Shown here: piece by piece, positions 17,319 through 56,531 of the stretch
How the letters are laid out: each line of letters begins with the position of its first letter
How positions within the stretch are numbered: the stretch's first letter is position 1
Assembly (NCBI GenBank): GCA_963676235.1
Contig: OY781044.1
Span: 558,181 to 622,180, forward strand
DNA: 64,000 nt
Source: Candidatus Methanomethylophilaceae archaeon
GTDB lineage: Archaea; Thermoplasmatota; Thermoplasmata; Methanomassiliicoccales; Methanomethylophilaceae
Reading direction: 5' to 3'
Notes under the pieces: model-generated
What the model was told of the DNA's origin: nothing
Seen by the model: the letters and a program-made list of their open reading frames with translations, nothing else
The model's database searches: none
Program-made: the position numbers and the translations under genes

Positions 17319-17957
17319 ATGACCAAACAACAAATCCTAGATGAACTGTGTAGTGCAGTAGAAAATTGTAAGGCAGACCTTGCAAAAAATGCTGCAGAAA
17401 AAGCACTGAAAGAAGGAGTTAATCCATTAGACGCCATCAATGATGGACTCGTAAAAGGGATGTCCGTTATCGGAGACAAGTACGCTGCACATACAGTATA
17501 CCTACCTCAAGTACTGGTTGCAGCACATGCAATGTACGCTGGACTTGATATTCTACTTCCAGCAATACCTAGAGAGGACCTGAAAGACAGCAAAACCTGT
17601 ATGACCGCTGTTGTAGAAGGGGATGTCCATGACATCGGAAAGAACATTGTTAAAACAATGATGGTCGCAGGCGGATTCCTTGTTACTGATCTCGGAAAAG
17701 ACATTTCTCCGACAGACATCGCAAAAGCCGTTAAGGATAATAAAACTAACATCGTAGCACTCAGCACACTCATGACTCCCACCATGGATAACATGAAAGC
17801 AACTATTGATGCACTCAAGGAGAACGGATACCGCGGAAACTGTACTATTACCATCGGCGGACCTCCAACGTCGCCGTCCTTTGCAAAAGAGATCGGAGCA
17901 GACCACAGAGACACTAACGCTCAAGACTGCGTCAACTGGCTCAAGGGGGCGAGGTAA
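17319..17957 (+). CDS. methyltransferase cognate corrinoid protein (MtbC/MtsB-size class)
   Basis: B12-binding DxHxxG motif (GDVHDIGKNIV), then LSTLMTPTM and GGPP. GAGG RBS 8 nt upstream. Confidence 0.9.
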   Translation: MTKQQILDELCSAVENCKADLAKNAAEKALKEGVNPLDAINDGLVKGMSVIGDKYAAHTVYLPQVLVAAHAMYAGLDILLPAIPREDLKDSKTCMTAVVEGDVHDIGKNIVKTMMVAGGFLVTDLGKDISPTDIAKAVKDNKTNIVALSTLMTPTMDNMKATIDALKENGYRGNCTITIGGPPTSPSFAKEIGADHRDTNAQDCVNWLKGAR

Positions 17958-19049
17958 ATGAAGACCATGACACCGATGGAAAGAAGCATGGCTGCCCTCA
18001 AAAATGAGAAGGTCGACAGGCTTTCTGCATATCCTATCGCATGCGGTGTCTGTAGAAAACTCATTGGAGACGGACACATCACATATCACGAGTGGGCAAA
18101 CGATCCCAAACTCTTTGCTCAAGCATTCATTGAAGGACAAAAGAAGTTCGGTTTCGATTTTGCCATCGGACTTATGGACCTATCAGTTATGGCTGGAGAT
18201 CTCGGAGCACATGTGAGGATGGACGAGGAAAACACCCCGTTCGTCGATGGGCATATCATTCACAGCATGGAAGACTACGAGAAATTAACTGTACCTGACA
18301 TCAAAAAAGGAAGAACAAATGTCCTCATCGAAGGAACAAAATTAATTGCAGATAATCTCAATGGAACTTGCGTAACATCTGCATTCGTTGAAGGACCACT
18401 ATTGGCACTTTCACAAACAGCTGGTGCAGAAAGACTGTTCATGGATATGTTCACCGATCCCGCTCCGGTGCACAAAGCACTCAAGGTGATGACCGAATAT
18501 GACTCTCAGATCGTAAAGGCGATGGGAGAGACGAAGATCAATGGATTGTGTTGGGATTACCTGTGGGGTAATTATGCATGTCTCGGAGATTCCGAATACG
18601 GAGAATTCGAAGCAAACACCTATGCAAAAAGACTTAACAAAGAAACCATCGAGAATGGAATGGCACTCGCGATCCATAACTGTGCAGATCTTCCTCATCT
18701 CGATACTCAGATCAAGAAGTACAAACCATCGATCTATTCTATGGCCTACTACCCATTGATCGAAGGATCCCCCAGTGCAACAGAGACCATCGAGAAAGGA
18801 TACGCAGACCATTGCCTTATCGCAGGTCAACTCGATCCTCAGTTATTCATCAGAGGAACTGAAGAGAAGATCACTGCTGTAACAAAAGATCTCTGCCATG
18901 AAGTCAAAACTGCATTATGCAAACGCGGACTGAATTCAAGCTACTGTATTGCATCTGGATGTGAAGTTCCACCTGACATAAACTGTAAGCTAGAAAACAT
19001 TACAGCTGTCATGAATGCAGTCGAAAAATATGGAAGAATGGATAACTGA
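17958..19049 (+). CDS. URO-D-family (MtaA/CmuA-like) zinc methyltransferase
   Basis: Uroporphyrinogen-decarboxylase-fold family. Zn ligand pattern H-x-C (AIHNCAD) plus a distal Cys (ASGCEVP). The start abuts the corrinoid gene stop (TAAATG). Confidence 0.8.
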   Translation: MKTMTPMERSMAALKNEKVDRLSAYPIACGVCRKLIGDGHITYHEWANDPKLFAQAFIEGQKKFGFDFAIGLMDLSVMAGDLGAHVRMDEENTPFVDGHIIHSMEDYEKLTVPDIKKGRTNVLIEGTKLIADNLNGTCVTSAFVEGPLLALSQTAGAERLFMDMFTDPAPVHKALKVMTEYDSQIVKAMGETKINGLCWDYLWGNYACLGDSEYGEFEANTYAKRLNKETIENGMALAIHNCADLPHLDTQIKKYKPSIYSMAYYPLIEGSPSATETIEKGYADHCLIAGQLDPQLFIRGTEEKITAVTKDLCHEVKTALCKRGLNSSYCIASGCEVPPDINCKLENITAVMNAVEKYGRMDN

Positions 19050-19068
19050 ACTGAACAGCCATTTACAA

Positions 19069-19143
19069 ACTCCTCCAAATAAATAAACTCTTTACTCCTC
19101 CTAATAAATAAACTCTTTACTCCTCCTAATAAATAAACTCTTT
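19069..19143. repeat. 3 x 25-nt perfect-to-near-perfect tandem repeat (ACTCCTCC[A/T]AATAAATAAACTCTTT)
   Basis: Read directly: units at 19069..19093, 19094..19118 and 19119..19143. Units 2 and 3 are identical; unit 1 differs at one base. Confidence 0.9.
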
Positions 19144-19178
19144 ATAATAAAAATACAAAAATAAATTGAGATGAAAGG

Positions 19179-19493
19179 ATGAATGGACATTACGAAGCAA
19201 TGAGAGCACAAGGATTTGGATACAATACAACAGCATCTGTCAGAAAATTCGCGTGTCCCCGCTGCGGTTTTCAATTCTCACTCGTATATGCGAGAACCTT
19301 TGCATGCCAAGGATGTTCTGAATCAGTAAAAGGATGCCCTAAAATCAGATGTAATAAGTGTGATCTTGAATTCCCTATAGCAGACATGCCAGAGATACAT
19401 GGAAAAGAACAGCAGAAAACAATGGCAGACCACATATGTCAGATTGTATCAGAAAGAAATTCTGATCTTGGTATTATTTCTGCCAAGAGGTGA
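19179..19493 (+). CDS. small Cys-rich (Zn-ribbon or Fe-S) protein
   Basis: Seven Cys within about 36 residues (CPRC...CQGC...C.....C..C). RBS GAAAGGA. Its stop overlaps the next gene's start (GTGA). Confidence 0.6.
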   Translation: MNGHYEAMRAQGFGYNTTASVRKFACPRCGFQFSLVYARTFACQGCSESVKGCPKIRCNKCDLEFPIADMPEIHGKEQQKTMADHICQIVSERNSDLGIISAKR

Positions 19494-21490
19494 AGATTAT
19501 GTTGCTCGGCCTTGGTTTTGATACGGGCGGTACGTACACTGATGCTGTGATCATGAATTTAGAAACAGATCAAATACTGATGAGTTCAAAAGCGCTCACA
19601 ACGCGTTACGATCTCTCGATTGGAATAAAGAACTCCATTAAAAATTTTAACTGCGACGTTTTGAACAAAATCTCTCTCGTATCATTATCATCTACTTTGG
19701 CAACTAATTCAATCGTAGAAGGAAAAGGGTGTAGAGTGGGACTCATATGTATTGGTGAAAAATATGATAACGCCGTAAGCGTAGATGCATACGCTTGCAT
19801 AAAAGGATGTCATGATTTATCCGGAAATGAATCTGAACCGCTAGATATCGATGCCGCTGAAAAATTCTTCAATTCTATAAAAGGAAAGGTTGATGGACTT
19901 GCAATCACCGGATATTTAAGTGTAAGGAATCCAGAACATGAGATCTGCATAAAGAAATTAGCTAACCGCATTCTAAATATACCTGCAGTATGTGGACATG
20001 AACTTTCTTCCGGACTGGGTTTCAACGAACGTACAACAACGTGTATAATGAACGCTCGTCTTATCCCGATCATTAAAGACCTTATAGATTCAGTCAACAA
20101 AGTCCTTTACGACAATAATATCAAAGCACCCCTTATGATCGTGAAGGGAGATGGATCAATAATGGACCAAAAAATGGCGAAGGAAAGACCTGTCGAGACA
20201 ATATTATCTGGTCCAGCCGCAAGTATGATCGGTGCAAGAAAACTCACCGGTCAGGACAATGCGATAGTAATGGATATCGGTGGCACAACTACAGATATCG
20301 GAATATTAAGAAACGGTCGCCCAAGATTAGAAAAAGAAGGAGCATTAATAGGCGAAAAAAGAACTAAAGTCCTTGCAGCAGACATAGCAACCTCCGGAAT
20401 AGGAGGAGATAGCCGTATTGTTGTCAACGGACAGAATATTCTTCTAATGCCTACAAAAGCCATCCCATTATGTGTAGCAGCCAACAAATGGCCTGATCTT
20501 AAGAGACGTCTCGAAAAGATAGCTACAGAAAAAGTACGTCCTACTCCAGAAGCGGTCAAAGAAGAGAATATTATACAGGAAACCGAATTCTTCATAAAAA
20601 TCAAGAATCCTTCATCAGACACACTATCGAGTATGGATCTGAAATTCCTAGATATTATCAAACATGAACCTCTGTCATTATCTGAAGCAGGAGAGAAACT
20701 GAACGTACATCCACTCGCGTTCAATGCATCTAAATTAGAAGGAATGGAACTTATTCAAAGAATAGGTCTCACTCCCACAGATCTTCTGCATGCTGAAGGA
20801 AGCTACTTAATATATGATGCAGAAGCATCAAAACTAGGTATACTCCATCAGGCAACTAAACTCAGGATAGCAACTGAGGAATTCATATTCAAGACGAAGA
20901 AAAAATTCATCGATAAACTGTGCATGGAACTCATGAAGAAGTTGATGTTCGAAGAGACTGGTTTACTTAATATGGATTGCAGCGAAAAGATACTTATTAT
21001 GAAGGCCATCGAACAAACATCTAATACAGAATTTGATTGCATGATCAAATTGAACAAACCAATTATAGGTATTGGAGCGCCTGTCGCAGCATATCTTCCA
21101 GCCGTTGCCAAAAGATTCAATACAAAACTATACATCCCAGAATATTCCGAAGTAGGCAACGCGATAGGTGCACTTACAAGCAGTATAATAGAAAGTATAG
21201 AGGTACTCGTAAAACCTAATCAGACTGGAAATTCTGATGACTCACCCTGTCTAGTGTTCGCAACATTTGGAAAGACTACGACCACTAGTTACGAAGAAGG
21301 TCTTGAATTGGCCAAATTCAAAGGTAAAATGTTCGTGAAAGAACTTGCTGAAAAAGCAGGTGCTGTTGACATCACAGTATCTTATGATGTCAATGAAAAA
21401 AGATATTCCACAGGTGATGATATGAACAATGTTCTGTTGGAAACTATCGTCACTGTGACTGCTGTAGGAAAACCCAAGCAATTCTCATAA
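19490..21490 (+). CDS. hydantoinase/oxoprolinase A-family (ASKHA-fold) ATPase-like protein
   Basis: N-terminal GFDTGGTYTDAV and central DIGGTTTDIG phosphate-binding motifs typical of HyuA. No HyuB partner in the window. The start is either GTG 19490 or ATG 19499. Confidence 0.75.
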   Translation: MKIMLLGLGFDTGGTYTDAVIMNLETDQILMSSKALTTRYDLSIGIKNSIKNFNCDVLNKISLVSLSSTLATNSIVEGKGCRVGLICIGEKYDNAVSVDAYACIKGCHDLSGNESEPLDIDAAEKFFNSIKGKVDGLAITGYLSVRNPEHEICIKKLANRILNIPAVCGHELSSGLGFNERTTTCIMNARLIPIIKDLIDSVNKVLYDNNIKAPLMIVKGDGSIMDQKMAKERPVETILSGPAASMIGARKLTGQDNAIVMDIGGTTTDIGILRNGRPRLEKEGALIGEKRTKVLAADIATSGIGGDSRIVVNGQNILLMPTKAIPLCVAANKWPDLKRRLEKIATEKVRPTPEAVKEENIIQETEFFIKIKNPSSDTLSSMDLKFLDIIKHEPLSLSEAGEKLNVHPLAFNASKLEGMELIQRIGLTPTDLLHAEGSYLIYDAEASKLGILHQATKLRIATEEFIFKTKKKFIDKLCMELMKKLMFEETGLLNMDCSEKILIMKAIEQTSNTEFDCMIKLNKPIIGIGAPVAAYLPAVAKRFNTKLYIPEYSEVGNAIGALTSSIIESIEVLVKPNQTGNSDDSPCLVFATFGKTTTTSYEEGLELAKFKGKMFVKELAEKAGAVDITVSYDVNEKRYSTGDDMNNVLLETIVTVTAVGKPKQFS

Positions 21491-51391: not shown

Positions 51392-51903
51392 ATATGAACC
51401 AATTTCTCTGCACTTAACTCTGATCTGTTTGAAATCCTGCGTATGCAAGAACCAAATCGTAAATTCAATCGGAAGGGAACATTATCCCCCATAGATTTAC
51501 TACACGAATGAAAATACTACGCACTCAGAAGATGTAGAAAATATATTAGAATGCCCATACCTGAGAAAATCTTCATATGAAATTCTATATCTGTATGTCT
51601 CCAACTATGCGATTGTTAATTGGTATCACGATATTAAATAACCTTCTTTCTATCGTTCCCAACGGTCTTTTCCGTTCCCCTCGTCGACTTGAATCTATAC
51701 ATGCATTATCTCAAAATCATTCTTCTATTTCTTCAACCTCACTTTGTCCAAAACATTTGTACAACATTTCTGCATTTAAGATATTACACTGAAGGTTGAA
51801 TCAACTCTTAAAACTCTTAAGCCTACCTAATTTATAAAAGAACTAATTGCCGAATTGGATTCATTACTTTAACTTTATATTTATATCAAGTGCATTACTC
51901 TCC

Positions 51904-52563
51904 ATGCATTGTTACAAAATATTATTAGATAGGACTGGCAATGTTAACGAACATCCTTGTCACAGCATTATTCCTGTAGAATTCGAAACAGAAGGTGTTT
52001 CGATGCAGATACTAACCTGTTCCATGCTCAATCAGAGCACCGGGTATTCGATAATCAAGATCGTAGACGAAAAAGACAATAATATTCAAGAGGGCTTTCA
52101 TGAAGCTGAATTCGGTGAATGCACCATTAACAAACTATTCTCCAAATGCTATCTTGCTATGGTCATAAATAAGAATTGTCTTCTATCAAAACTGATTAAC
52201 GAATCTGGTTGCTTTCTAACATCTGCCATCCCGAAAACGGATACTTTGATTGAATGGACATTAGTTGGATCAAATAGCAAAGCACTTCATAATTTAACCG
52301 ATAATATGAGAGAAAATGGATATAAATTTGAGATAATCTCAAGTGAAAACCTATTAGTAAAGACTACATTGACACCCAAACAAGAACAATATTTTAACAT
52401 AGCCATGAACCTGGGTTATTATGATATTCCAAAAAAAATAGATCTTGATGAATTGTGCTGTATTCTCGGATGTTCCAAATCAACACTTAATGTCGTATTG
52501 AGAACGGCAGAAAAAAAAATATTCGATTACTATCGTATCGCGAGCGGCAAAATACGTTTTTGA
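51904..52563 (+). CDS. HTH_10 (Bat-like) DNA-binding transcriptional regulator
   Basis: C-terminal LTPKQEQYFNIAMNLGYYDIPKKIDLDELCCILGCSKSTLNVVLRTAEKKI. The start is uncertain: track TTG 51847, or ATG 51904. Confidence 0.7.
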   Translation: MHCYKILLDRTGNVNEHPCHSIIPVEFETEGVSMQILTCSMLNQSTGYSIIKIVDEKDNNIQEGFHEAEFGECTINKLFSKCYLAMVINKNCLLSKLINESGCFLTSAIPKTDTLIEWTLVGSNSKALHNLTDNMRENGYKFEIISSENLLVKTTLTPKQEQYFNIAMNLGYYDIPKKIDLDELCCILGCSKSTLNVVLRTAEKKIFDYYRIASGKIRF

Positions 52564-52598
52564 CTGGAACTCATAATATTTCGATGTATAGTTTGGCT

Positions 52599-52614
52599 CG
52601 AACATGTTCGTAAT
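52599..52614. promoter_or_regulatory. palindrome CGAACATGTTCG + TAAT upstream of the MFS gene (site 1 of 2)
   Basis: GAACATGTTCGTAAT is identical to 54450..54464. It lies about 87 nt upstream of the start codon, just 5' of an AT-rich TATA-like stretch. Confidence 0.45.
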
Positions 52615-52691
52615 TGTAATTAAATATTAATCTGGTGAATATCTGCGTAATGGTCTGATGAACCCTCCGCCTACCAAATGGAGGTTAAAAT

Positions 52692-54023
52692 TTGACTATA
52701 GATCCACAAAAGAAAAAAAAGATGCTGTCCTACAGATGGGCTGTATTCGCGGTCATGGCATTAGCGTATTTCTTCGTCTATTTCCATAGAACCACAGGAG
52801 GTGCCATATCTGATAATTTACAAGATTATTTTGGCGTAGGTACCGCATCGATAGCATTGTTGGCTTCAGCATACCTATATGCATACACCTTGATGCAGAT
52901 TCCCAGCGGAATTCTTACAGATAAAATGGGACCGAGGCGGGCTGCGACGATTTTCGTCTTTCTTATCGCCGTAGGTTCTTTGATCAGCGCATATTCCGCC
53001 ACATGCAATGATTTCACATTGATGATAGTCGGAAAATTCATCATCGGTATCGGTGCAGCAGTAGTATATATCCCAATAATGAAAATATTAGCTGTATGGT
53101 ACAGAAAAGATGAATTCGCATCCATGAGCGGCATATTGTTACTTGTCGGTAATGTGGGTGGAATTGCAGCCGCAACCCCTATGGTGCTGATGATGGATAA
53201 TCTCGGGATACAGAATACATACATCGTACTTGCCATTATCACAGCTGCTATCGCATTACTCTGCTGGTTCATTGTAAGAAATCATCCTTCTGAAAAAGAC
53301 CTTCCGAGTATGGAAGAGATCGTCTCCGAGGAAACAGGGAAACCGATATCTGAATCAACATCAGCAAAAATGGGCACCGTCGTTGCACTGAAAACAACCT
53401 TTGGCAGCGGAAGAAAATTCTGGCCCCTTGCGATATGGTTCTTTTTCATGTATGGTACTATAATGCTCTGGCAAGCCTCTCAATCCGGTTCATTTTACAA
53501 GAATATCTATGACTTCTCCAGTGGTAACGCAGCTCTAATGGTTACCATGGTTGGAGTCGGAATGGTATTCGGCTGCCCATTAGCAGGACGTCTTTCAGAT
53601 AAGATATTACATTCCAGAAAAAAAGTAATTCTTATCGGAACAACAGCATATACTGTAATATGGGCCATAATATGGTTGACTGCAGGTAAAGATTACATGA
53701 ACAGTACTACCATACAGATGATCATTAATTTCCTCTTCGGCTTTTTCGGAGGCTTCTTTGTTGTAGCATATGCACAGATCAAAGAACTATATCCAATCGC
53801 GATGGCTGGTACATCGACTGCAGCCCTAAATCTATTCCCCTTTGCTGGGGGTGCAATCCTAATCACCATCGCAGGACTAATTGTGACAGAAAAGACATTA
53901 GCACAGTATCAGACAGTATGGTTAATGGCATTTATTATGATGATAATAGCATTAATCTGTGCATTTCTGTCTGTTGAAAAAGAATCTACAAAGAAACCTG
54001 AAAAAAAGACTGAAGATAATTGA
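52692..54023 (+). CDS. MFS transporter
   Basis: About 12 TM helices and the MFS loop motif (TDKMGPRR). TTG start with a GGAGGT RBS 7 nt upstream; an alternative ATG is at 52722. Confidence 0.85.
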   Translation: MTIDPQKKKKMLSYRWAVFAVMALAYFFVYFHRTTGGAISDNLQDYFGVGTASIALLASAYLYAYTLMQIPSGILTDKMGPRRAATIFVFLIAVGSLISAYSATCNDFTLMIVGKFIIGIGAAVVYIPIMKILAVWYRKDEFASMSGILLLVGNVGGIAAATPMVLMMDNLGIQNTYIVLAIITAAIALLCWFIVRNHPSEKDLPSMEEIVSEETGKPISESTSAKMGTVVALKTTFGSGRKFWPLAIWFFFMYGTIMLWQASQSGSFYKNIYDFSSGNAALMVTMVGVGMVFGCPLAGRLSDKILHSRKKVILIGTTAYTVIWAIIWLTAGKDYMNSTTIQMIINFLFGFFGGFFVVAYAQIKELYPIAMAGTSTAALNLFPFAGGAILITIAGLIVTEKTLAQYQTVWLMAFIMMIIALICAFLSVEKESTKKPEKKTEDN

Positions 54024-54449
54024 TTTCCTCCAATAAATCGATTAAAACCACTTCTAAACCATTTTTATTTTTATATTATCATCAATCGTAATGATATAAA
54101 CTACATAAATGGCTCAAGAATAATCAATACTCTTAGAAATGCTCGATCTCTCTACCATCATCTTTTAGCTCAGAATTCTATAAATTTTGAATTCCACCCT
54201 ACATTGAAATCCTATAATAATCTAATAGCATTTGGTAATAGAACTTAACATCCAACGTAAATGCCTAGTAATCTACAATCCTACTCATTTAACCCGATTC
54301 CCTAAATTAATATTCAAAGTCCGTATCAAAATCAATATCTCAATTGGATAATTTTCATCGTACTTTCAAATTAAAGTAGATAAACTATCATTTCTACTTA
54401 ACGTTCAAAATATTGACAATTTTTTAATTGCCTTTATCGAGATGAAAAT

Positions 54450-54464
54450 GAACATGTTCGTAAT
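54450..54464. promoter_or_regulatory. GAACATGTTCGTAAT upstream of the corrinoid-protein gene (site 2 of 2)
   Basis: 15/15 identical to site 1. It lies about 93 nt upstream of ATG 54548 and is followed by TTTATATT. Confidence 0.45.
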
Positions 54465-54547
54465 GTTCTTTATATTCGCAATAGTAAATACTATATATGG
54501 TAGGCGGAAAAATCACAGATCACTAACCCCATTAGGAAAGTGATGGA

Positions 54548-55201
54548 ATGAACGATAAAGAATTATTGAAAGAATTAGCAGACTCAGTTGTAGCATGCGA
54601 TCCGAATAGAGCCAGAATTGCGTCTGAAAAGGCCTTGAAAGAAGGTATTGACCCGGTTGAAGCGATAAATAAAGGATTGGTGATAGGTATGGGCGTAATC
54701 GGAAATGACTATGCCGAACACAAAATATACCTGCCACAGGTCCTTGTAGCTGCTCATAGTATGTACGAAGGACTGAACGTACTCCTTCCAGCAATACCCA
54801 AAGGAGATCTGTCAGATGCAAAAACAGCCATCACAGCCGTAGTTCAAGGTGATGTTCACGACATAGGCAAGAATATCGTAAAAACAATGTTGACTGCTGG
54901 CGGCTATATTGTCAACGACCTCGGAAAAGATGTGCCACCTTCATCGATAGCAAATACTGCAAAAGAAACCAGCGTAAATGTCGTATGTCTTTCTACATTG
55001 ATGACTCCAACCATGGACAGTATGCAAGAAGCAGTGAAACTGATTAACGATAATGGCTATCATAAAAATTGTATCATAACCATTGGAGGACCACCCACAT
55101 CAGAAAAATTTGCAAAGGAGATCGGAGCAGATCACAGAGACGATGACGCTCAATCCTGTGTAAAATATGTTAACAGCAAAATGAAAAAGGAAGTGAAGTA
55201 A
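54548..55201 (+). CDS. methyltransferase cognate corrinoid protein (paralog of 17319..17957)
   Basis: GDVHDIGKNIV, LSTLMTPTMD, ITIGGPPTS, FAKEIGADHRD. Confidence 0.9.
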   Translation: MNDKELLKELADSVVACDPNRARIASEKALKEGIDPVEAINKGLVIGMGVIGNDYAEHKIYLPQVLVAAHSMYEGLNVLLPAIPKGDLSDAKTAITAVVQGDVHDIGKNIVKTMLTAGGYIVNDLGKDVPPSSIANTAKETSVNVVCLSTLMTPTMDSMQEAVKLINDNGYHKNCIITIGGPPTSEKFAKEIGADHRDDDAQSCVKYVNSKMKKEVK

Positions 55202-55202
55202 T

Positions 55203-56231
55203 ATGGTCATGTCATGTAGAGACAGAGTTTTAGCTGCAATAAATCAAGAAACCTTGGACAGGCCTCCTGTAGCTGTGTTCACAACATGTGACACCATCGG
55301 TATGATGAAAGCAAGTGGAGCTTCGTGGCCAGAAGCACATTCCGACCCACAAAAAATGGCGACCCTCGGATGCGCTCAAGCAGACTATTTTGGCTTGGAA
55401 TCAGTCAGAGCTGGATTTTGCCTTACGGAGGAAGCGGAGGCTTTGGGATGCCCAATCGACATGGGAACAAGTCATTCTTCACCTATGCTAAAAGGACACA
55501 GAAACAAGTACGATCCCATGAAAAAAATCTATGATGAACCTAATGACCTTCCGGATATTGATGTTTTCCTTAACACTAAAAGAGTGAAAACAACCATTGA
55601 AGCTATGAAGATCATGAAAAAAACACACGGAGAAAAGTATTGTGTGGTTGGCGGGAATACCGGTCCTTTCACACTCTGCGGACATCTCTTAAACACAGAA
55701 AATTTGGTGTATTCTGTATGGACAGATCCAAAAGAGGCTCAAAAATGGGTTGCAGCTATCGCACCTTATTGTAAAGCATTCGGACAAGCACTACTTGATG
55801 CGGGAGCAGATATCGTTCAGATGTCAGAACCATCCGCTTCCACTGATATTTTAGCACCTAGTGATTTTCCAATACAATCGGGACAGTTTGTAAAACATGC
55901 ATTAGGAGATTTGACAGGACATACAATTCTTCATATATGCGGAGATTCCGCACCCATAATTCCATTCATGTTCGATACAGGTGTGACAGGAATATCTGTT
56001 GAAGAAAAAGTACCACCGGAAAAAGCTGTAAAAATAGCTAACAAGAGAGGTGCATTGGTAGGAAACGTAGGGTGTGCTATGCCCCTTTACAAAGGGACTC
56101 CACAGGAGGTAGCAAAAGCTGCAAGAGCAAGCAGAGATGCAGGATTTAACGTTATATCGGCAGGCTGCGGAGTACCTATAGGAACTCCAGACGACAACAT
56201 ACGTGCACTCGTGAAAGCTATTACCGGTTAA
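55203..56231 (+). CDS. URO-D-family methylcobamide methyltransferase (MtaA/MtbA/MtpA-like)
   Basis: H-x-C (LHICGDS) plus a distal Cys (SAGCGVP) as Zn ligands. It starts 2 nt after the corrinoid gene. Confidence 0.85.
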   Translation: MVMSCRDRVLAAINQETLDRPPVAVFTTCDTIGMMKASGASWPEAHSDPQKMATLGCAQADYFGLESVRAGFCLTEEAEALGCPIDMGTSHSSPMLKGHRNKYDPMKKIYDEPNDLPDIDVFLNTKRVKTTIEAMKIMKKTHGEKYCVVGGNTGPFTLCGHLLNTENLVYSVWTDPKEAQKWVAAIAPYCKAFGQALLDAGADIVQMSEPSASTDILAPSDFPIQSGQFVKHALGDLTGHTILHICGDSAPIIPFMFDTGVTGISVEEKVPPEKAVKIANKRGALVGNVGCAMPLYKGTPQEVAKAARASRDAGFNVISAGCGVPIGTPDDNIRALVKAITG

Positions 56232-56456: not shown

Positions 56457-56531
56457 TGGAGCCGCTGGAGGGAATTGAACCCTCGACCTACGCCTTACCA
56501 AGGCGTCGCTATACCCCTTAGCCACAGCGGC
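56457..56531 (-). tRNA. tRNA-Thr (anticodon GGU), CCA encoded
   Basis: Reverse complement is GCCGCTG TG GCTA AGGGGTA TAGC G ACGCC TTGGTAA GGCGT AGGTC GAGGG TTCAATT CCCTC CAGCGGC T CCA. Confidence 0.9.

Follow-up and report, generated by a model that had tools for sequence, protein, structure and literature searches.

The closed genome (1,656,407 bp, 42.5% GC) of a Candidatus Methanomethylophilaceae archaeon was analyzed over a stretch of 64,000 nucleotides (contig OY781044.1 of assembly GCA_963676235.1, positions 558,181 to 622,180; hereafter, the window). At window positions 51904–56231, it harbors genes for an HTH_10 transcription regulator, an MtpP-family transporter of the major facilitator superfamily (MFS), a corrinoid protein, and an MtaA-family zinc methyltransferase with the uroporphyrinogen decarboxylase (URO-D) fold. 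The reading that we favor, with about an even chance of being right, is that the locus encodes an inducible module for importing and demethylating an anionic S-methyl compound, for example, 3-methylmercaptopropionate (MMPA). It is favored because the transporter is homologous to MtpP and has anion carriers as relatives, because the corrinoid and methyltransferase genes follow the MtsAB/MtpCA pattern, because no other methyltransferase 1 (MT1) of a known family is at hand, and because all characterized enzymes of the methyltransferase family act on thiols or thioethers. MMPA is the leading candidate substrate since it arises from methionine as well as from dimethylsulfoniopropionate (DMSP), and other methionine-derived S-methyl carboxylates are possible. 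The route from DMSP to MMPA has been described (10.1101/548461). In this reading, we infer the substrate, the direction of methyl transfer, activation as opposed to repression, and the enzyme of the coenzyme M (CoM) step.

All four genes were found on the + strand where the original prediction had placed them. The regulator gene (51904–52563; 219 aa) precedes the MFS gene (52692–54023; 443 aa, TTG start, Pfam MFS_1). A 524-nt intergenic spacer with 28–30% GC (54024–54547) separates the latter from the genes for the corrinoid protein (54548–55201; 217 aa, Pfam B12-binding_2 and B12-binding) and the methyltransferase (55203–56231; 342 aa, Pfam URO-D). Open reading frame (ORF) and Pfam analysis thus bore out the predicted spacer and the lengths of 443, 217, and 342 aa. 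The description of the last gene as a start-abutted URO-D zinc methyltransferase also held, with a single base between the corrinoid gene stop and the methyltransferase start and with the zinc ligands H244, C246, and C322 present. The MFS gene forms its own transcription unit, with a T5AT5 tract at 54062–54072 past its stop, and neither an Rfam family nor a credible ORF was found in the 524-nt spacer. No MtaB or MttB gene is present within the locus, and reading through TAG lengthened no ORF there, in agreement with the earlier statement that the locus lacks both an MtaB/MttB-type MT1 and an amber-interrupted ORF. A tRNA-Thr(GGT) gene on the minus strand (56457–56531), 226 nt past the methyltransferase stop, bounds the locus.

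The two transcription units share a putative operator, identified by exact repetition and conservation and assigned to no strand. The window contains the 15-mer GAACATGTTCGTAAT in just two exact copies, one before the MFS gene and the other before the corrinoid gene. Operator 1 (52599–52614), with the palindrome CGAACATGTTCG inside the 15-mer, precedes the TATA-like sequence TTAAATATTA (52620–52629) by 10 bp and the start of the MFS gene by 78 nt. Operator 2 (54450–54464) likewise precedes the TATA-like sequence TTTATATT (54469–54476) by 9 bp and the start of the corrinoid gene by 84 nt. Of the core palindrome GAACATGTTC, the genome (1.66 Mb) contains eight copies, and only those at these two promoters are intergenic; hence, the regulon in this genome appears to consist of the two promoters. 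Further regulon members were sought and rejected, as there is no other exact intergenic palindrome in the genome and the intergenic sites with one mismatch precede unrelated ORFs. The remaining six copies all fall within coding sequence; a 4,924-aa ORF outside the window (genome C1:171026–185800) accounts for four of these through its repeats. This ORF contains 1,857-bp tandem repeats with one GAACATGTTC copy each and presumably encodes an adhesin-like repeat protein not related to the regulon. Across genera, GAACATGTTC is retained upstream of MFS, corrinoid, and methyltransferase genes in most of the type A and type B loci described below; the regulator and the MFS are likewise conserved from genus to genus. 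A common binding site of archaeal activators is immediately upstream of the TATA box and the TFB recognition element (BRE). Because the palindrome sits just upstream of the TATA-like boxes, we infer that the regulator would act there as an activator and not as a repressor.

The regulator ORF extends over 51847–52563 (238 aa), and an alignment of 18 orthologues set its true start at the ATG at 51904. The earlier description of a Bat-type HTH_10 regulator stood for the C-terminal HTH_10 domain (54.5 bits, cut-off 23.1; residues 175–226 of the 238-aa ORF) but not for the sensor part, as GAF and PAS domains are absent. No Pfam domain of any kind was detected in the N-terminal 155 residues. This region, encoded by 51904–52370, is an alpha/beta domain of about 155 residues with four invariant cysteines in the orthologue alignment (Cys19, Cys39, Cys92, and Cys103), and it was predicted confidently in the AlphaFold2 (AF2) model of the regulator (pLDDT 83). 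A fold search with this model against the PDB returned nothing outside the HTH with a TM score above 0.3. The N-terminal domain may be a metal- or thiol-sensing domain. Two metagenome proteins, P0544 and P0573, are gene calls of 685–687 aa with HTH_10 and MFS_1 in one ORF, the MFS part sharing 80–82% identity with that of the window; the calls represent either genuine regulator–transporter fusions or read-through.

The transporter links the locus to a known system. The window MFS (Pfam MFS_1, 175.6 bits) belongs to the anion-transporter branch of the superfamily: its nearest NCBIfam models are those of PgtP and of the D-galactonate and lactate transporters, its nearest PDB relatives are SLC37A4 and DgoT, and all these relatives of known substrate are anion carriers. 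It is 46% identical and 69% similar to Methanosarcina acetivorans MtpP (L121:5001–6368) over its full length (452 columns, E 2e-139). In the tree, the two proteins fall into one family, with the genome's own MFS paralogue (41%) outside; the comparison with MtpP that had been proposed as a check was therefore positive. Homologues of 46–48% identity to the window MFS are encoded by Methanosarcina sp. T3 and sp. Mfa9, the T3 protein sharing a 90% cluster with M. acetivorans MtpP, and the cultured Methanomethylophilus alvi has an orthologue that is 79% identical. MtpP-family MFS genes stand beside genes for URO-D corrinoid methyltransferases in three lineages, namely, Methanosarcina (L115, L116, and L121), Methanomassiliicoccaceae (L118), and Methanomethylophilaceae (at least 20 loci).

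The M. acetivorans C2A locus (AE010299.1:5081340–5092707) contains genes for a corrinoid protein, a URO-D protein, an MFS transporter, and a FilR1/ArsR regulator (mtpC-mtpA-mtpP-msrH, MA4164–4167). This arrangement agrees with the published mtpCAP-msrH layout (PMC7374477), and the same gene run was found in Methanosarcina sp. T3 and sp. Mfa9. The predicted resemblance of the window locus to mtpCAP stood for the gene content (the same four genes, including a DxHxxG corrinoid protein, with no classical MT1) and for the homologous MFS, but it failed for the methyltransferase and the regulator. The gene order is C-A-P-regulator in Methanosarcina, whereas in the window regulator and MFS are followed by corrinoid protein and methyltransferase in two transcription units. 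The window methyltransferase is 32% identical to MtpA and falls into another clade, and the Methanosarcina regulators combine FilR1_middle with HTH_5, whereas the window regulator has HTH_10 only and shows no pairwise similarity to MsrH. Judged from the sequences, the locus thus differs from mtpCAP by an apparently independently recruited methyltransferase, another regulator family, and a defined putative operator; the transporter is homologous. Beside mtpCAP, sp. Mfa9 carries a second cluster (L116:11618–19202) with a corrinoid protein of 213 aa, a divergent URO-D protein of 366 aa, an MtaA-like URO-D protein of 336 aa, an MtpP-type MFS of 459 aa, and a FilR1 regulator, which looks like an mtp-related system of three components. 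Methanosarcina sp. MTP4 has a similar pair of MFS genes.

The window methyltransferase scored 200 bits with Pfam URO-D, 248 bits with TIGR01463 (cut-off 235.4), and 285.4 bits with PRK06252 (cut-off 244). It scored below the cut-off of the MtaA_Meth equivalog model NF040654 (285 vs. 400 bits), which was built on other orders. It matched Methanosarcina mazei MtaA (4AY7) over the full length (residues 5–339) with 35% identity, and in the alignment its three zinc ligands coincided with that enzyme's H-x-C and G-C-G motifs. It differs from MtaA in belonging to a separate paralogue clade, supported at 99–100 in the trees, with its own corrinoid gene, transporter, and operator. This clade lies inside a Methanomassiliicoccales-only clade together with that of the mcr-linked MtaA, the nearest paralogue in the genome (52% identity). 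In the maximum-likelihood tree, MtpA was placed elsewhere, on a long branch together with Methermicoccaceae-type proteins, and its clade was split from that of the window enzyme with support of 98–99. BLAST gave P0269, P0154, and P0141 as the best MtpA relatives, the window enzyme ranking about twentieth. When 1.84 billion representatives were searched exhaustively, no protein outside Methanomassiliicoccales exceeded 38% identity to the window methyltransferase; the nearest relatives outside the order (at most 38%) were those of Bathyarchaeota, Methermicoccaceae, and Korarchaeota. Cluster look-ups for its relatives contained no Methanosarcina protein. The best-supported interpretation of these comparisons is that the window methyltransferase is not orthologous to MtpA and was recruited independently of it. 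An MtpA-like enzyme, as implied by the original prediction, hence finds no support in the identity of 32%, lower than the 35% to M. mazei MtaA, or in the tree position; a sister relation is not formally rejected, as forcing a joint clade of the window enzyme and MtpA, whose branch is long, cost 44 log-likelihood units with p 0.076 in the approximately unbiased (AU) test.

The window corrinoid protein carries the DxHxxG motif (DVHDIG) at residue 102 and scored 175 bits with TIGR02370, the MtbC and MtgC models scoring nearly as high. With 37% identity to M. acetivorans MtpC, it could be regarded as an MtpC-type cognate at the family level only. It shares 62% identity with the second corrinoid protein of the window (17319–17957), and among the eight corrinoid proteins of the genome, only the window's two pair solely with URO-D-family enzymes. 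Its orthologues (≥65% identity) are confined to the genomes with type A loci and to G057.

The pairing of a corrinoid protein with an MT2-family enzyme in the absence of a separate MT1 is an architecture shared with Methanosarcina barkeri MtsA/MtsB. MtsAB acts on neutral dimethyl sulfide (DMS) as well as on MMPA, and we know of no transporter or dedicated regulator reported with it. In both MtsAB and MtpCA, a corrinoid protein works with an MT2-family enzyme that demethylates the thioether with no separate MT1 involved, and the characterized members of the soluble CoM methyltransferase family named there all act on thiols or thioethers (bioRxiv 10.1101/548461; PMC10418091). MtsA is bifunctional. 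MtpA was first thought to be so too, and the original prediction had described it in these terms; this view is outdated, since the enzyme in purified form works as an MMPA:cob(I)alamin MT1 that methylates mercaptopropionate, does not methylate CoM, and needs a separate MT2 (bioRxiv 10.1101/548461). MtsA/MtsB is a plausible mechanistic model for the window pair if the window enzyme is bifunctional.

For the proposed module, the following sequence of events can be suggested. The HTH_10 regulator would sense the substrate or its thiol product via the cysteine-bearing N-terminal domain and bind the palindrome GAACATGTTC upstream of the TATA boxes at the two promoters. Promoter 1 would drive the MtpP-family MFS, which would import the anion and perhaps export the thiol product in return. 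Promoter 2 would drive the genes of the corrinoid protein and of the zinc methyltransferase derived from MtaA. The latter enzyme would demethylate the thioether onto Co(I), and CoM would then be methylated either by the same enzyme, as with MtsA, or by the mcr-linked housekeeping MtaA, as with MtpA and its separate MT2. The reactions could also run in reverse, with a thiol (mercaptopropionate or a sulfide-derived one) being methylated from the methyl-corrinoid and the product being exported by the MFS as a means of detoxification or overflow. This possibility is very improbable: although, for MtpA, thermodynamics favor the methylation of mercaptopropionate by methylcobalamin (10.1101/548461) and MFS transporters are often exporters, methyl groups would be wasted in an organism that lives by reducing them, and the activator-type promoter layout and the Methanosarcina precedent favor catabolism.

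Elsewhere in the genome, the mcr-linked (housekeeping-type) MtaA gene is located directly upstream of a DUF169 gene and mcrB (L001:6102–9557; genome C1:1040101–1043556). There are also an MtbA-like gene, two MtaBC pairs, and a single MttB gene with an in-frame TAG that adjoins its own corrinoid gene. An orphan MT1 of the MtaB, MttB, MtmB, or MtbB type is absent from the genome; hence, no MT1 of a known family is available to the window corrinoid protein. A divergent URO-D gene (17958–19049) belongs to the window's other module (17319–21490). This module was considered as the source of the missing MT1 and rejected, since the relative G016 has a type A locus without the divergent URO-D protein (MT363), its other URO-D proteins being MtaA and an MtbA-like protein only.

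The gene content of this genome bears on a second interpretation, in which the locus would comprise an ordinary carrier and MT2 pair serving an unlinked and possibly unknown MT1, the imported methylated anion being a methoxylated or N-methylated acid, for example, and not a thioether. The position of the methyltransferase next to the housekeeping MtaA clade and its scores over the MtaA/CmuA subfamily cut-offs would fit such a role, as would the high scores of the corrinoid protein on the MtbC and MtgC models and the existence of type B loci with no corrinoid gene, expected of a promiscuous MT2. We nevertheless consider it rather unlikely, given the lack of an orphan MT1 of the four types in the genome, the G016 case, and the restriction of the operator to two promoters. 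Furthermore, a corrinoid gene is normally transcribed together with an MT1 gene, but in the window locus its coupled partner is a gene of the MT2 family.

A total of 61 genomes of the family were compared. MFS orthologues of at least 60% identity are present in about 26 of them, and most of the fetched MFS loci have an HTH_10 regulator and a URO-D methyltransferase alongside. Type A loci, to which the window belongs, have the order regulator, MFS, corrinoid protein, and methyltransferase (L008, L010/L017, L012, L013, L022, L023, L028, and L029). Type B loci combine the MFS with a methyltransferase of another clade and an opposite-strand regulator and contain no corrinoid gene (L016, L018, L019, L020 with a variant layout, L021, L024, L030, and L031, as well as L118 of Methanomassiliicoccaceae). 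In type C (L014), a housekeeping-type MtaA gene is divergent from the MFS gene, with neither regulator nor palindrome. The partner methyltransferases at MFS loci are thus drawn from three clades, that of type B forming a separate branch of the same Methanomassiliicoccales radiation. Types A, B, and C are intermixed in the MFS tree, which indicates that transporter, regulator, and operator stayed constant while the methyltransferase was exchanged.

Several observations weigh against an MMPA-demethylating module. By sequence identity, the relatives nearest to the methyltransferase are pure MT2 enzymes, namely, the mcr-linked MtaA (52%) and M. mazei MtaA (35%). The type C locus pairs an MFS 79% identical to that of the window with a housekeeping-type MtaA, with regulator and palindrome absent, and in many relatives the MFS and regulator are paired with the other methyltransferase clade and no corrinoid gene; several type B genomes have no Cor212/Cor217-type corrinoid protein at all. 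MFS homologues from Methanothrix are 62% identical to the T3 MtpP orthologue and 54–55% identical to the window MFS, and on the Methanothrix-type contigs L119 and L120, no methyltransferase or corrinoid gene is found near the MFS gene; hence, the MFS family is not tied to one substrate. Finally, the MMPA compound on which rumen strains of the order are reported to grow is a methyl ester, which could simply release methanol. On L119 and L120, the MFS gene of this acetate-using methanogen adjoins a gene for a DinB-type polymerase.

The pattern of partners also recalls a third possibility, namely, that the MFS scavenges CoM or a related thiol sulfonate and that the MtaA-type neighbor is linked to it since CoM is its substrate. 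The MFS indeed has only one constant partner, an MtaA-family enzyme whose clade varies; moreover, the transporter belongs to the anion type, Methanothrix has the MFS too, and many gut Methanomassiliicoccales are without CoM synthesis (PMC5011839). CoM scavenging is, however, quite improbable, as the window genome possesses cysteate synthase and ComDE, and the M. acetivorans orthologue is part of an MMPA-specific operon in a CoM prototroph. Nor was an inverse relation to CoM synthesis observed, the MFS orthologue being present in 10 of the 17 CoM-synthesizing genomes and in 16 of the 44 that lack the pathway.

Extending the preferred reading of S-methyl compound import and demethylation beyond the window, it is conceivable, though somewhat doubtful, that an order-wide chassis of one regulator, one operator, and an MtpP-type importer has had at least three MtaA-family methyltransferases plugged into it, an MT2 being repeatedly turned into a substrate demethylase for an S-methyl acid (MMPA or a relative). 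The three types would be the window clade with its own corrinoid protein, the order-wide type B clade with none, and the housekeeping-type MtaA. If so, host-associated methyl-reducing methanogens would have a sulfur-linked source of methane that is missing from substrate lists. The swapping of methyltransferase clades also bears on how MT2-type enzymes become substrate-specific MT1 enzymes, as with MtpA.

Methanomassiliicoccales are a major source of rumen and gut methane, and their usual substrate list comprises methanol and methylamines, together with an "mtsAB" prediction. The wider substrate range put forward in the original prediction had in part been anticipated, as Borrel et al. (2014; PMC4153887) listed in this order "mtsAB" and a corrinoid "mtxC, uncertain methyl compound" beside mta/mtbA-type genes. 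The likeness of the "mtxC/mta-mtbA1" and "mtsAB" pairs to the window genes is by catalogue description, and an MFS goes unmentioned in the main text of that catalogue. In addition, ISO4-H5 and LGM-RCC1, rumen strains of the order, have been reported to grow on methyl 3-methylthiopropionate (PMC5011839; PMC10804542), while M. alvi does not use DMS (PMC10673518). A literature search found no paper that describes the transporter, the operator common to both promoters, the HTH_10 regulator, or the exchange of methyltransferase clades. To these listings, the present locus adds a concrete gene set for the use of a charged S-methyl compound, consisting of an MtpP homologue, a corrinoid protein/methyltransferase pair, a regulator, and a 10-bp putative operator. 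The latter could serve as a simple tool in gel-shift and reporter experiments and in following expression in metatranscriptomes.

Individual loci among the relatives showed further arrangements. The type A locus seen in L010 (4298–7321) and L017 (7217–10240) encodes two tandem methyltransferases that belong to the window clade (67% and 61% identity); a separate GAACATGTTC site precedes the second by 84 nt. In G057 (L015; C1:1340000–1353000), an MFS gene whose product is 53% identical has the same palindrome 81 nt upstream and is divergent from the gene for an MtaA/CmuA-type methyltransferase (443 bits, TIGR01463), which is followed by a corrinoid gene. Judging by its position, this methyltransferase–corrinoid pair is probably the one earlier annotated as "mtsAB" in Ca. 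M. alvus. The type A locus of G059 (C10:1711–4731) matches the window MFS in two separate pieces of 81–84% identity, which suggests that its transporter gene is disrupted.

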